The position numbers and the translations under genes are program-made. A stretch of 64,000 nt of DNA from NCBI RefSeq assembly GCF_036507355.1, contig NZ_AP027877.1, one strand, 5' to 3'. Below the pieces are notes generated by a model. It was given only the letters and a program-made list of their open reading frames with translations, was not told where the DNA came from and did not search any database. This stretch comes from Escherichia coli (GTDB taxonomy: Bacteria; Pseudomonadota; Gammaproteobacteria; Enterobacterales; Enterobacteriaceae). Positions 44,818-48,019 of the stretch are shown here, in pieces; position 1 is the first letter of the stretch, and every line of letters begins with the position of its first letter.

Positions 44818-46998
44818 ATGCTGCGATGGATTCGCTATATAACGCTAATCGTTATTTCTGGTGCTGCTTATGCGGCACCGGAGATAAATATTAAGCAAAG
44901 CGAATCTTCATTACCTGATCTGGCAAGCGAAACGGCTCAACAAGAGGAACAAAGTAACAAAGGCAAATCTTTCAAGGAACGTGGTGCCAATTACGTTACC
45001 GAGTCCGCCCATCAGGGCTTTGAGAACCTGACTCCAGAAGCTCTTGAATCCCAGGCGAGAAGCTATCTGCAAGGGCAAATCACATCATCTGCACAGTCTT
45101 ATATTGAAGGTGCGCTTTCTCCTTATGGTAAAGTTCGCTCTAACCTTTCCATCGGTCAGGGTGGCGATCTGGACGGCAGTTCGATCGACTATTTTGTTCC
45201 CTGGTATGACAATCAGAGCACAGTCTATTTCAGTCAGTTTTCTGCGCAACGAAAAGAAGAACGCACGATAGGTAATATAGGTTTAGGTGTAAGACATAAT
45301 TTTGATAAATGGCTTCTGGGGGGGAATATATTTTATGATTATGATTTCACCCGCGGACATCGCCGTTTAGGCTTAGGAACAGAAGCCTGGACGGATTATT
45401 TAAAATTTTCTGGTAACTATTATCATCCGCTTTCAGAGTGGAAAGATTCAAAAGATTTTGATTTCTATTTAGAACGACCCGCACGTGGCTGGGATGTCCG
45501 GGCGGAAGCCTGGCTACCTTCTTATCCTCAGCTGGGGAGCAAAATTGTTTTCGAGCAATATTATGGTGACGAAGTGGCGCTCATCGGCACCGATAATTTA
45601 GAAAAAGATCCCTATGCAGTGACGCTTGGCGTGAACTATCAACCCGTTCCGTTACTGACGGTCGGGACGGATTATAAAGCAGGTACCGGAGATAACAGTG
45701 ATCTTAGCGTTAACGCCACGATTAACTATCAGTTCGGTGTTCCGCTAAAAGATCAACTGAATAGCGATAACGTCAAAGCAGCTCACTCGCTGATGGGCAG
45801 CCGCCATGACTTTGTTGAGCGCAATAATTTTATTGTTCTGGAATATAAAGAAAAAGATCCTCTCGACGTTACGTTGTGGCTGAAGGCTGACGCCACCAAT
45901 GAACACCCGGATTGTGTCATCAAGGACACCCCCGAAGCTGCGGTAGGGCTGGAAAAATGTAAGTGGACAATCAATGCGCTAATCAACCATCACTATAAGA
46001 TTGTCGTCGCCTCGTGGCAGGCGAAAAACAACGCTGCGCGTACGCTGGTGATGCCGGTTATCAAAGAAAATACCATCACGGAAGGGTACAACAACCACTG
46101 GAATCTGGTGCTGCCAGCCTGGCAGTACAGCTCTGATCCCGCCGAACAGGAAAAACTCAATACCTGGCGCGTGCGTCTGGCGCTGGAAGATGAAAAAGGC
46201 AACCGGCAAAACTCCGGCGTGGTGGAAATCACCGTTCAGCAGGATCGCAAAATTGAACTGATCGTCAACAACATTGCGGATGTGCCGGATGAAAACAATC
46301 ACAGTCATGAAGCCAGCGCTCAGGCGGATGGCGTCGATGGCGTGGTGATGGAGCTCGATGTTACCGATAGCTTTGGTGATGACACCGACCGTAACGGTAA
46401 TGCGCTGCCAGAAAATGGCCTGAGTCCGCAGCTTTACGATGCTCAGGATAAAAAAGTCACCCTCACCAATAAAGCCTGCTCGACCGATAACCCGTGCGTC
46501 TTTATCGCGAAGCAAGATAAAGAGAAAGGAACCGTCACCCTCTCCAGTACTTTGCCCGGCACCTTCCGCTGGAAAGCAAAGGCCGCGCCGTATGACGATA
46601 GTAACTATGTCGATGTGACTTTCCTCGGGGCGGGGGGCAATGACGTTAATGCCTTTATCTACCGTGTATCTGCGACTAAACCTGTCAACCTTATTGATAA
46701 CGACAAAGAACATTTGCCGGTGGATAACGCCTACCGTTTTGTCTTATGGCGTGATGCCAACAAAGATGGCGTTTTCCAGCAGTCGGAAAAACTGACGGAA
46801 GAAGAAATGGCGCAATACGACTACCAGTGGGAATTTACCGGACACAGCGTCAATGGCTACACCGGTGCGCAATCGAATACCAGTAATGAAGATATTGTCA
46901 TCCCTGCCACTAACGAGGAAGCGGTACAGAAATTTGGTGCCCAAAAAGAGGATGGCGTGCAGGGGTATGGATTACGTGTGGTTTACAGCAAGCACTAG
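44818..46998 (+). CDS. sinH: Intimin/invasin-family inverse autotransporter, SinH-like
   Basis: 726-aa ORF: signal peptide, inverse-autotransporter beta-barrel region, Ig-like passenger domains; position between yfgJ and xseA as in the Salmonella CS54 island. Confidence 0.8.
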   Translation: MLRWIRYITLIVISGAAYAAPEINIKQSESSLPDLASETAQQEEQSNKGKSFKERGANYVTESAHQGFENLTPEALESQARSYLQGQITSSAQSYIEGALSPYGKVRSNLSIGQGGDLDGSSIDYFVPWYDNQSTVYFSQFSAQRKEERTIGNIGLGVRHNFDKWLLGGNIFYDYDFTRGHRRLGLGTEAWTDYLKFSGNYYHPLSEWKDSKDFDFYLERPARGWDVRAEAWLPSYPQLGSKIVFEQYYGDEVALIGTDNLEKDPYAVTLGVNYQPVPLLTVGTDYKAGTGDNSDLSVNATINYQFGVPLKDQLNSDNVKAAHSLMGSRHDFVERNNFIVLEYKEKDPLDVTLWLKADATNEHPDCVIKDTPEAAVGLEKCKWTINALINHHYKIVVASWQAKNNAARTLVMPVIKENTITEGYNNHWNLVLPAWQYSSDPAEQEKLNTWRVRLALEDEKGNRQNSGVVEITVQQDRKIELIVNNIADVPDENNHSHEASAQADGVDGVVMELDVTDSFGDDTDRNGNALPENGLSPQLYDAQDKKVTLTNKACSTDNPCVFIAKQDKEKGTVTLSSTLPGTFRWKAKAAPYDDSNYVDVTFLGAGGNDVNAFIYRVSATKPVNLIDNDKEHLPVDNAYRFVLWRDANKDGVFQQSEKLTEEEMAQYDYQWEFTGHSVNGYTGAQSNTSNEDIVIPATNEEAVQKFGAQKEDGVQGYGLRVVYSKH

Positions 46999-47053
46999 AT
47001 CGGCGTAATGGCCGATCGGCCAGCCGCTGGAAATTAATCAAGGAGAGAGTTGA

Positions 47054-48019
47054 ATGAAACACTATTTAAAGCGACCGATGACTAAAGTCGTGCTGGCGCT
47101 GGCTTTAGCGGGATACTGCGCAGTGCCTGCTGCTATGGCAGAAGGGCAGGGCAACCTTAGGGCGGGTCAGTGGCAATCAGAGACAGAAACTACCGGAACG
47201 ATTCAGGGTACAGTGCCGTGGATCACTCGTAGCGCGACGGAAATCACCGATGCTGATAAATCTCATGTGTCCATTACCGTTGATCGTGGCGGACGTTCTG
47301 CTTCAACCGATGGCGAGAAGCAATTTCATATTGGTGACAAGTTAACTGCAAACTGGGCCATTGGCGATACCCAGGGCGACCTTGACGACAACAACACTGC
47401 AACCAAAGCGACGCTGCAATGGATGAGCTATAGCGACCAGGCGGGGGGTGATCCGAAAGAGATCGGTACAACGGGCAGTGACACCTATACCATTGCCGCA
47501 GCGGATGCCGATCGCTACATCGGTTTGAAAATTACCCCGACCACCACGACCGGTGATCCTAACGTTGCAGAACAACTGATCCTGTTAGACCTCTCCACCA
47601 ACGCGGGCGGTGGTTCTGACAGCGATGATATTCCGGAAGGTCCGGTATTTGACGATGCGGTTAAAGTTGTCATTCATGAGCAGGGTGTTAACACCAACCT
47701 GCTGGGCAAAGAAACCAAACTCAAAACCAATACCACTTATCAGGTCATGCTGTGGAAAGATAAAAACAGCAACGGCTCCTACGACACTGGCGAAGAGGTT
47801 ACCAGCCAGTACAACTACCGCTGGCGCTTTACCGGTACCAGTCTGCAACTGCGTACCAACGGCGGGATTGTCAACCCGAGCTACAACAACAGCGACCTGG
47901 TTATCCCAGTTACCAACGCCGAAGCGAAAACTGCGTTCGACTACAGCGAAGGTGGCCTCACCCTTGGCGCGGATGGTGTTCAGGGCTACGGTTTGTCCAT
48001 CGATTACCAGAGAAAATAA
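47054..48019 (+). CDS. sinI: SinI-like secreted protein; C-terminal domain paralogous to the SinH C-terminus
   Basis: 321-aa ORF with signal peptide and AGGAGAG SD; C-terminal ~100 aa align with the SinH C-terminus (ends GVQGYGLSIDYQRK versus GVQGYGLRVVYSKH). Confidence 0.65.
   Translation: MKHYLKRPMTKVVLALALAGYCAVPAAMAEGQGNLRAGQWQSETETTGTIQGTVPWITRSATEITDADKSHVSITVDRGGRSASTDGEKQFHIGDKLTANWAIGDTQGDLDDNNTATKATLQWMSYSDQAGGDPKEIGTTGSDTYTIAAADADRYIGLKITPTTTTGDPNVAEQLILLDLSTNAGGGSDSDDIPEGPVFDDAVKVVIHEQGVNTNLLGKETKLKTNTTYQVMLWKDKNSNGSYDTGEEVTSQYNYRWRFTGTSLQLRTNGGIVNPSYNNSDLVIPVTNAEAKTAFDYSEGGLTLGADGVQGYGLSIDYQRK

Follow-up and report, generated by a model that had tools for sequence, protein, structure and literature searches.

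The proteins encoded by sinH and sinI in the window analysed here (the whole stretch of 64,000 nucleotides of Escherichia coli, contig NZ_AP027877.1) have a homologous C-terminal module, which is the distal domain of SinH and the last third of SinI. We hypothesise that the two genes form an adhesin and accessory partner pair resembling ZirT/ZirS/ZirU, within the 'ila' cluster sinH-sinI-ratA. By analogy with the Zir system, we put the probability of this reading at roughly 0.5. Both the similarity between SinH and SinI and the hypothesis of a ZirTS-like partner are already known (2003-2019); what is described here is how far the homology extends, and what surrounds it.

The sinH-sinI locus

The genes and their main features, all on the plus strand, are as follows.

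44818..46998, plus strand: sinH, a 726-aa ORF, intimin-like inverse autotransporter
45010..45828, plus strand: outer-membrane beta-barrel of SinH, residues 65-337 (Pfam PF11924 IAT_beta, E=7.4e-105)
45829..46635, plus strand: SinH passenger domains 1-2, residues ~338-606, with no SinI counterpart detectable by hhalign
46636..46995, plus strand: SinH C-terminal module (distal domain), residues 607-726, defined by homology with the SinI C-terminus and by the AF2 model
46999..47053, plus strand: sinH-sinI spacer, 55 nt, with a hairpin at 46998-47017 and the sinI ribosome-binding site AAGGAG at 47040-47045
47054..48019, plus strand: sinI, a 321-aa ORF, SinI family autotransporter-associated protein
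48249..49573, plus strand: 3' remnant of a ratA-like giant adhesin gene (last ~440 codons), positions 2242-2683 of 2683 in the RatA-like model NF011844

SinH matches the NCBIfam equivalog model NF033423 over residues 1-726 with 1476.6 bits (cutoff 999), and the name sinH is annotated in E. coli genomes that are 99.5% identical. The barrel also matches the invasin and intimin barrels in the PDB (4e1t, E=4e-71; 4e1s, E=4e-63), and passenger domains 1 and 2 have been described as Ig-like (PMC9937491). SinI matches NCBIfam NF040711 over residues 7-318 of 321 (420.6 bits, cutoff 165, E=3.8e-126). The NCBI name "SinI family autotransporter-associated protein" existed before this work, so the association was already annotated. 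A Pfam search placed SinI in no family, the beta-barrel included, and its N-terminus is of the Sec type (MKHYLKRPMTK and a hydrophobic segment, with A-M-A just before E), which bears out the description in the earlier note of a protein with its own signal peptide and no barrel. Passages in PMC4943183 (citing Kingsley 2003) and PMC6714894 likewise state that SinI has no barrel and resembles the SinH passenger.

The two genes lie between der/yfgJ and xseA, as in the known E. coli 'ila' cluster and the Salmonella CS54 island. The genes, their order and their site are those of SinH (SivH) and SinI (SivI) of CS54 and of sinH-sinI-ratA (IatB and the downstream gene) of 'ila'. The window differs in having a rare allele, found in 48 of 5,426 complete E. 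coli genomes, O145:H28 among them, and a ratA-like gene of which, compared with locus L002, a deletion of 5,153 bp has left just the 3' remnant, with the junction at 48246-48248. The remnant has neither a start codon nor a signal peptide of its own, and no similarity was found between it and SinI. The RatA-like gene is intact in 14 other loci, where it encodes proteins of 1,366 to 3,008 aa.

No terminator-like or promoter-like site was found in the 55-nt spacer, and its hairpin folds weakly (z=-1.8). Co-transcription of sinH and sinI is reported in a passage of PMC12525524, which cites Shea 2022. In all 16 genome loci compared, from at least six genera, sinH lies immediately 5' of sinI with a gap of 36-78 nt, so that sinI is adjacent to an inverse autotransporter gene there as in the window. 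This strict adjacency argues for functional coupling of SinI and SinH. On the 3' side of sinI there is a RatA-like gene in 14 of the loci and a second SinI-like gene in 2.

The shared C-terminal module

The earlier note proposed that SinI is a free-standing paralog of the SinH C-terminal domain. The observation is confirmed, and the match is not one of low-complexity sequence. In BLASTP, SinH 623-725 and SinI 214-320 align over 112 columns, of which 38% are identical and 54% positive (E=4e-16), and profile-profile comparison of 32 SinI and 16 SinH sequences using hhalign gives a probability of 99.65% (E=4.5e-25). The NCBIfam models cross-match in both directions, the SinI model to SinH 611-723 (E=3.5e-22) and the SinH model to SinI 212-321 (E=1.8e-19). 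Several conserved blocks carry the similarity, namely Y-x-F/V-x-L-W-x-D-x-N, Y-D/N-Y-x-W-x-F-T-G-x-S, V-I-P-x-T-N-x-E-A and D-G-V-Q-G-Y-G-L.

The boundaries of the homology as given by hhalign are SinI 200-321 and SinH 607-726, about 120 aa. The position from which the note counted the domain (46690, SinH residue 625) is inside the module, and its true start is near residue 607 (nt 46636). The SinH-like part of SinI is its last third only: sequence and profile comparison found no SinH-like sequence elsewhere in SinI, and the term paralog holds for residues 200-321 but not for the remainder, which has no SinH match by hhalign. The similarity of the two proteins is already mentioned in a passage of PMC4943183 (Heinz 2016), citing Kingsley 2003; compared with the published account, the likeness is here restricted to the third, most distal SinH domain. 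By its residue numbers, the SinH module is the same stretch as the ExPEC vaccine antigen 'SinH-3', which consists of SinH residues 602-724 (PMC9937491).

Predicted fold and putative calcium loop

AlphaFold (AF2) generates models for the module of SinH (pLDDT 83.8, pTM 0.76) and of SinI (pLDDT 80-92). The two were modelled independently, from different alignments, and have an identical order of secondary structure elements, beta-beta-beta-beta-alpha-beta. The module is thus predicted to be a beta-sandwich with one helix. A profile search with the module found no PDB sequence at E<=1, and Pfam found no Big family, Big_1 and Big_2 included, on SinH or SinI at E<=0.1. The distal domain has no match in fold or sequence to C-type-lectin-like domains either. 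Intimin and invasin have a homologous barrel, and their passenger is likewise a C-terminal chain of beta-sandwich domains, but their tip is a C-type-lectin-like receptor-binding domain that has no free-standing paralog. The SinH tip, unlike theirs, is predicted to be the beta-sandwich just described, has no lectin-like match, and is duplicated in SinI.

Both modules contain a loop resembling that of an EF-hand.

46753..46788, plus strand: EF-hand-like 12-residue loop in SinH, D646-E657 (DANKDGVFQQSE), a predicted Ca2+ site
47759..47794, plus strand: EF-hand-like loop in SinI, D236-E247 (residues 236-247), recognised by conservation of the loop

All 34 sequences compared have D at position 1 of the loop and an acidic residue at position 12. 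In most of them N or D occupies positions 3 and 5, and G predominates at position 6. Both loops fit the EF-hand-like DxDxDG type, which calls for D at position 1, D/N/S at 3 and at 5, a G at 6 and either E or D at 12. The strict PROSITE EF-hand pattern does not match the SinH/SinI loop, whose position 8 is aromatic rather than I/L/V. We infer from this conservation that the loop probably binds Ca2+.

When the module was used as query in an exhaustive phmmer search, giant proteins also came up in which as many as 16 stretches matched. Such proteins were rejected as orthologs, the matches being to short motifs in GEVED, SdrD_B, I-set and LRR proteins; it is the loop motif that causes the matches to GEVED, SdrD_B and DUF2141 domains. 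The SdrD B-type, GEVED and DUF2141 repeats, which have calcium loops of the form DxNxNGxxDxxE, have in common with the module a strand-loop signature (Y-x-V-x-x-W/Y-x-D-x-N-x-N/D-G-x-Y/F-D-x-x-E). In the exhaustive search this signature, of ~20-40 residues, was the only part of the module that matched, and SinH and SinI are both below the Pfam threshold for each of these families. The relationship is one of a common motif, which does not demonstrate family membership.

The N-terminal part of SinI

SinI can be divided into five parts.

47054..47140, plus strand: signal peptide, residues 1-29, predicted cleavage A-M-A|E, read from the sequence
47156..47218, plus strand: mature N-terminal motif LRAGQWQSETETTGTIQGTVP, common to SinI and RatA-like giant adhesins
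47225..47539, plus strand: N-domain, residues ~58-162, weakly ZirU-like (AF2 pLDDT 62-86)
47540..47650, plus strand: Gly/Ser/Asp-rich disordered linker, residues ~163-199 (AF2 pLDDT <50 for residues 163-195)
47651..48016, plus strand: C-terminal module, residues 200-321, paralog of SinH 607-726 by BLASTP, hhalign and AF2

The motif is 21-24 residues long and has the form L-K-x-G-x-W-Q ... T-x-x-I-x-G-T-x-P (pattern WQ-x5-6-[ST]-x2-3-[IVF]-x-G-T-x-P). A strict regular expression for it has 27 matches in 751,606 six-frame residues, all of them at the N-termini of SinI or RatA-like proteins. Comparison of the SinI and RatA-like N-termini by hhalign gives a probability of 95.3% (E=2.2e-8), and still 93.8% (E=1.7e-7) with the signal peptides removed. 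Homologues of the RatA N-terminus, like those of the SinH passenger, are mostly incomplete database entries, which makes the alignments shallower. A longer homology between the two N-domains was considered and rejected: under permissive hhalign settings DT[EQ]GD and TxTGxPN line up, without statistical support past the first 24 residues. Because the similarity is unsupported beyond this point, the motif could be the first strand of a common domain and not a signal. AF2 gives pLDDT 88 at SinI residues 41-50.

The N-domain is also found in the second SinI-like paralogs of two loci (L015 and L016). In Lelliottia and Buttiauxella, the N-half of SinI is fused to another tip (Big_2 and Lcl_C, like the C-terminal region of intimin). 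This recurrence with a different tip suggests that the N-half is a common 'partner' module and the C-domain a variable functional end.

Possible functions of SinI

In Salmonella, ZirT is a zinc-regulated inverse-autotransporter-like translocator with co-encoded exoproteins. The secretion of ZirS is ZirT-dependent (PMC2270342). ZirT/ZirS/ZirU and SinH/SinI have in common an upstream intimin/invasin-type barrel protein followed by one or more small, barrel-less, Sec-dependent, passenger-like proteins, and sinH-sinI has exactly this architecture. SinI is not a member of the ZirU family: its N-domain alone matches NF040485 ZirU_fam, and scores 25.4 bits where the cutoff is 100 (E=1.3e-5). The analogy therefore rests on architecture and not on orthology. 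The SinH locus also differs in having a giant RatA-like adhesin with the N-terminal motif of SinI; we found none described for Zir. The analogy between SinH/SinI and Zir has already been proposed (PMC4943183, PMC6714894).

As an inverse autotransporter, SinH has its N-terminal barrel in the outer membrane and displays three passenger domains, the last being the ~120-aa beta-sandwich. SinI is exported by Sec and has no barrel. Its two domains, an N-terminal part that opens with the RatA-like motif and a C-terminal copy of the distal domain of SinH, are joined by a flexible linker. By analogy with the Zir proteins, SinI would most likely be an accessory partner that reaches the surface or the medium in a SinH-dependent manner, or that docks on the SinH passenger. 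The N-terminal motif could then mark SinI and RatA as clients of one step of export or docking. Through the duplicated domain, SinI would have the binding or self-association surface of the SinH tip, probably stabilised by Ca2+. In favour of the partner reading, the homology is confined to one module, the gene order is conserved, and the motif occurs only in SinI and RatA-like proteins. Against it, IatB (SinH) is reported to mediate biofilm formation in the absence of the downstream protein (Goh 2019, PMC6714894), and the SinH barrel is already filled by its own passenger linker, which is a difficulty for the export of a second protein (PMC4943183). The interpretation of the role of SinI in the earlier note, as competitor, partner or exchanged module, is partly supported.

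A more specific version, possible but rather unlikely, is that SinI is a chimeric adaptor or client which defines a type Ve 'two-partner' pathway. The ~24-residue motif, found in SinI and the giant RatA/RatB-like adhesins only, would then be the signal recognised when SinH exports or docks barrel-less proteins, and the duplicated distal domain would enable SinI to pair with the SinH tip or replace it. There is a conceptual likeness to two-partner secretion (type Vb, FhaC/FHA), which also combines a barrel with separate Sec clients that have a conserved element at the mature N-terminus. Type Vb differs in that its barrel is of the Omp85/TpsB type whereas that of SinH is intimin-type, and its TPS domain is a beta-helix of ~250 residues, against ~24 residues here.

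Another reading, conceivable though unlikely, places SinI in the periplasm as a chaperone or assembly factor that binds the SinH passenger, RatA or both ahead of their export, through Ig-like domain contacts. Periplasmic Ig-fold proteins often chaperone other Ig-fold proteins (PMC4943183), and a protein that is SinH-like at one end and RatA-like at the other, in a tightly kept gene order, would suit a bridging or adaptor role. However, ZirS and ZirU, the nearest analogues to have been characterised, are exoproteins rather than residents of the periplasm; the function of SinH in biofilm assays without SinI (Goh 2019) counts against this role too; and the window has kept sinI intact despite the deletion in ratA, although this deletion could be recent.

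We regard as decidedly unlikely the suggestion that SinI is a soluble decoy or competitor, which, once released, would alter adhesion or immune recognition by occupying the host ligand of the SinH tip or by absorbing antibodies to the distal domain. SinI does have a full-length, well-folded copy of that domain, attached through a flexible linker. In SinH the domain is exposed on the surface and immunogenic enough to be the protective vaccine antigen SinH-3 (PMC9937491), and ZirTS is an antivirulence modulator (PMC2270342). Yet identity between the modules is just ~37%, and their lineages were already distinct when the genera split (discussed below), which makes a common ligand or common epitopes far from assured; nor would a decoy have any need of the N-terminal motif that SinI has in common with RatA.

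It is similarly unlikely that SinI is a mini-adhesin that is lipid-anchored or otherwise attached to the surface and independent of SinH, with the shared domain as a reused binding module. This would fit the canonical lipobox of a few distant homologues (LFASC, AVAGC, LFAGC, VFVSC) and the signal-peptide cysteine in the sequence AGYC, which is kept in 120 of 132 SinI clusters. However, other family members have no cysteine at all, and in the window A-G-Y-C has Tyr at -1 and does not fit the lipobox [LVI][ASTVI][GAS]C, which gives no support to a lipoprotein in this allele; there is a good A-x-A signal peptidase I site downstream. The strict pairing of sinI with sinH in all 16 loci also speaks for functional coupling and against independence from SinH.

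Age of the duplication

The C-terminal modules form a SinH clade and a SinI clade, with 61% identity among SinH modules and 64% among SinI modules. Identity between SinH and SinI modules comes to 37.3% when both are from one genome and to 37.4% when they are from different genomes, a pattern that holds in 13 of 14 genomes. The exception is Buttiauxella, where the two modules are 47.8% identical and cluster together. From these sequence comparisons, the duplication is older than the divergence of the enterobacterial genera sampled. The copy of the SinH distal domain in SinI arose before Escherichia, Citrobacter, Superficieibacter and Leminorella separated, and purifying selection has maintained it since.

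The same comparison of identities and clades gives no sign of gene conversion between the modules in the core group, contrary to the suggestion of a module exchanged by recombination. The idea that sinI is a silent donor cassette, swapping tip sequence with sinH to produce antigenic variation, has next to no probability and is already largely refuted for the core group: the homologous segments do lie ~1 kb apart in direct orientation and the Buttiauxella pair would fit, but the other 13 genomes do not, ~37% protein identity implies little room for long identical stretches of DNA, and sinI, which has a ribosome-binding site and encodes a signal peptide of its own, is a complete gene that is expressed.

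Implications

The conserved EF-hand-like loop predicts that the distal domain is calcium-dependent. SinH-3 is in development as a broadly protective ExPEC antigen, and the co-expressed paralogous domain encoded by the next gene is not mentioned in PMC9937491. If SinI is indeed a chimeric adaptor, this antigen has a co-expressed and possibly released paralog, and the efficacy of the vaccine could be affected. Whether inverse autotransporters export separate clients is a question of mechanism, for which the motif common to SinI and RatA offers a concrete element to mutate.

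SinI and its homology to SinH

SinI looks, from its sequence, like a protein with a RatA-like element at one end and a SinH-like domain at the other. The sinH–sinI region is flanked by bamB–der on one side and xseA–guaB on the other, and the same genes are annotated in E. coli genomes that are 99% identical. It contains the following features.

44818..46998, + strand: sinH, 726-aa ORF (NCBIfam equivalog NF033423, 1476.6 bits against a cutoff of 999)
SinH residues 65–337, + strand: SinH barrel (Pfam IAT_beta)
47054..48019, + strand: sinI, 321-aa ORF (NF040711, "SinI family autotransporter-associated protein", 420.6 bits against a cutoff of 165)
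48191..49573, + strand: third ORF, 460 aa, whose match to a RatA-like adhesin model of 2,683 positions is confined to the final 442
48249–49573, + strand: ratA-like remnant, without promoter or signal peptide

The similarity between the C-termini of SinH and SinI claimed in the earlier note is confirmed. BLASTP aligns SinH 623–725 with SinI 214–320 (38% identity over 112 columns, E=4e-16), and a profile-profile comparison built from 32 SinI and 16 SinH sequences matches SinI 200–321 to SinH 607–726 with a probability of 99.65% (E=4.5e-25), detecting no further SinH-like stretch in SinI. In addition, the curated NCBIfam SinH and SinI models match each other's protein (E=1e-19 to 1e-22). The similarity is thus real and not compositional, lies where the earlier note placed it, and is confined to the third SinH domain, of about 120 residues (here called the C-module). 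As previously noted, SinI carries a signal peptide, of the Sec type, and lacks a barrel; it matched no Pfam family. The C-module has no close solved fold and no lectin-like tip; an EF-hand-like loop is present in it.

Sixteen homologous loci were recovered from species-level genomes of Escherichia, Citrobacter, Superficieibacter, Leminorella, Lelliottia, Buttiauxella and one further enterobacterium. In all 16, sinI lies directly 3' of sinH, with a spacing of 36–78 nt. The next gene encodes a RatA-like giant adhesin (1,366 to 3,008 codons) in 14 loci and a second SinI-like protein in the other two. In a tree built from the C-modules of 14 genomes, the SinH-type and SinI-type modules fall into separate clades. 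Mean identity is 61% among SinH and 64% among SinI modules, and SinH–SinI pairs average 37.3% in the same genome and 37.4% across genomes. The separate clades and these equal identities indicate that the duplication predates the sampled genera, and that both copies are under similar constraint with no concerted evolution. The proposal that the module is exchanged by recombination thus finds no support. The exception is Buttiauxella (L016; sinH 8090–10351, sinI 10404–11291), where the two C-modules are 47.8% identical and cluster together; a separate duplication, lineage-specific gene conversion or a long-branch artefact could each explain this.

In the database entries P0196 and P0171, which are SinH-like or SinI-like, Ala is systematically changed to Val, Thr to Ile or Met, and Pro to Leu or Phe (for example MKVVLVLVVVGYCVVLVVVV). 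C-to-T converted DNA, whether bisulfite-treated or heavily deaminated, would be expected to give such changes, and the two entries are probably assembly artefacts, not real variants.

The N-terminal part of SinI

Directly after the SinI signal peptide is the motif LRAGQWQSETETTGTIQGTVP (nt 47156–47218), with which the mature RatA-like giant adhesins, products of the same operon, also start (for example ALKGGQWQQTGISTDAINGTVP). Across SinI and RatA-like N-termini of loci L001–L017 the motif spans 21–24 residues, L-K/R-x-G-x-W-Q-x5-[ST]-T-x-x-I-x-G-T-x-P. Profile comparison of the two sets of N-termini gives a probability of 95.3% (E=2.2e-8) with signal peptides kept, and 93.8% (E=1.7e-7; 24 columns, 46% identity) with them removed. 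Searching 751,606 six-frame residues (the window and all loci) with a strict regular expression gave 27 hits, exclusively at SinI or RatA-like N-termini; the more diverged Salmonella Rat-like N-termini retain the core WQ...[IF]NGT[VP]P. The motif may act in the export or docking of both kinds of protein, and we found no earlier description of it in the literature searched.

The remainder of the N-terminal half weakly resembles ZirU, a Salmonella exoprotein (E=1.3e-5, under the family cutoff). This half is reused in Lelliottia and Buttiauxella, where it is joined to a Big_2 and Lcl_C (C-type-lectin-like) C-terminal end resembling that of intimin. These second SinI-like genes (L015 1758–2864 and L016 11304–12470, respectively) occupy the ratA position, and would in effect encode barrel-less intimin tips. 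Given its RatA-type motif and reused N-terminal half, SinI is more than a free-standing copy of the SinH tip. The earlier interpretation is partly supported. Paralogy and the idea of a partner stand; the free-standing tip, the recombination cassette and the lectin or Big fold do not.

Within the SinI signal peptide, AGYC (residues 18–22, window 47105–47119) does not vary across the 32 aligned SinI sequences and occurs in 120 of 132 SinI-family clusters, a degree of conservation that is unusual in a hydrophobic core. In a few distant homologues a canonical lipobox stands at this position (LFASC, AVAGC, LFAGC, VFVSC), and others lack the Cys.

Signs of acquisition and decay at the locus

G+C content is 39–41% at 44000–45500, which covers the barrel-encoding part of sinH and the sequence upstream of the gene, compared with 51–55% in the flanking core genes, which fits horizontal acquisition of the sinH island. 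The 'ila' cluster sinH-sinI-ratA corresponds in E. coli to the CS54 island of Salmonella (PMC12928451). By Megablast the sinI allele of the window is uncommon (48 of 5,426 complete E. coli genomes, O145:H28 strains among them).

Relative to the intact locus L002, the window lacks 5,153 bp. The deletion is clean; its junction, at 48246–48248 with 3 bp of microhomology, is spanned by none of the 5,426 complete genomes. The missing stretch starts 61 bp before the ratA-like start codon, which is lost together with the signal peptide and approximately 1,700 codons. The 460-aa TTG-start ORF is thus an artefact, reading through from intergenic sequence into a remnant. In E. coli E69 (L012), sinH is broken into two ORFs (7358–8050 and 8849–10315) some 800 bp apart, and in strain ESDR8 (H7) ISKpn26-family and IS1B-family transposases are among the features annotated under the match. 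Together with the ratA deletion, these suggest that the locus is often degraded. The spacer between sinI and the remnant has a match to the Rfam sRNA ES036 (CssrF) at 48098–48140 on the minus strand (52.4 bits, gathering score 37.6). It overlaps an apparent REP/BIME-like palindromic element (~48070–48180), and so may derive from the repeat instead of being a genuine sRNA gene.

Possible function of SinI

The closest characterised system is ZirT/ZirS of Salmonella, in which the intimin-type barrel protein ZirT is required for secretion of the downstream-encoded, Sec-dependent ZirS (PMC2270342). The same mechanism has been proposed for SinH and SinI, with Rat-like proteins as possible further clients (Heinz et al., PMC4943183; Goh et al., PMC6714894). 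The data fit this model. Our preferred reading, at a probability of roughly one half, is that SinI is an accessory partner, or a client, of SinH; it would be exported or docked via SinH. This reading draws on the strict adjacency of the genes, the lack of a terminator in the sequence of the sinH–sinI spacer, their co-transcription as reported in PMC12525524, the N-terminal element common to the two barrel-less proteins, SinI and RatA-like, and the reuse of the SinI N-terminal half. A counterpoint is that biofilm formation by IatB (SinH) does not need the downstream gene (PMC6714894), and a difficulty for export is that a second protein would have to pass an already occupied barrel (PMC4943183). 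It is unlikely that SinI is a periplasmic chaperone or adaptor, a little less likely that it is a soluble decoy or competitor, and slightly less likely again that it is an independent surface-anchored mini-adhesin. A recombination cassette is very improbable, given the separate clades and matching identities.

Relation to published work

The core paralogy of SinH and SinI is already known, being traced to work of 2003 in PMC4943183. The present analysis adds where the homology begins and ends, how old the duplication is, and that gene conversion is absent; that the module has neither a close solved fold nor a lectin-like tip; that it contains an EF-hand-like loop; that SinI and RatA have an N-terminal motif in common; and a link to the vaccine literature. 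SinH-3 (residues 602–724), a protective ExPEC antigen termed the receptor-binding domain by its authors (PMC9937491), is the same module as that duplicated in SinI, and a text search of that paper counted zero occurrences of SinI. The value of the finding lies chiefly in the N-terminal motif, which can be tested, and in the paralogy of SinI with a vaccine antigen.
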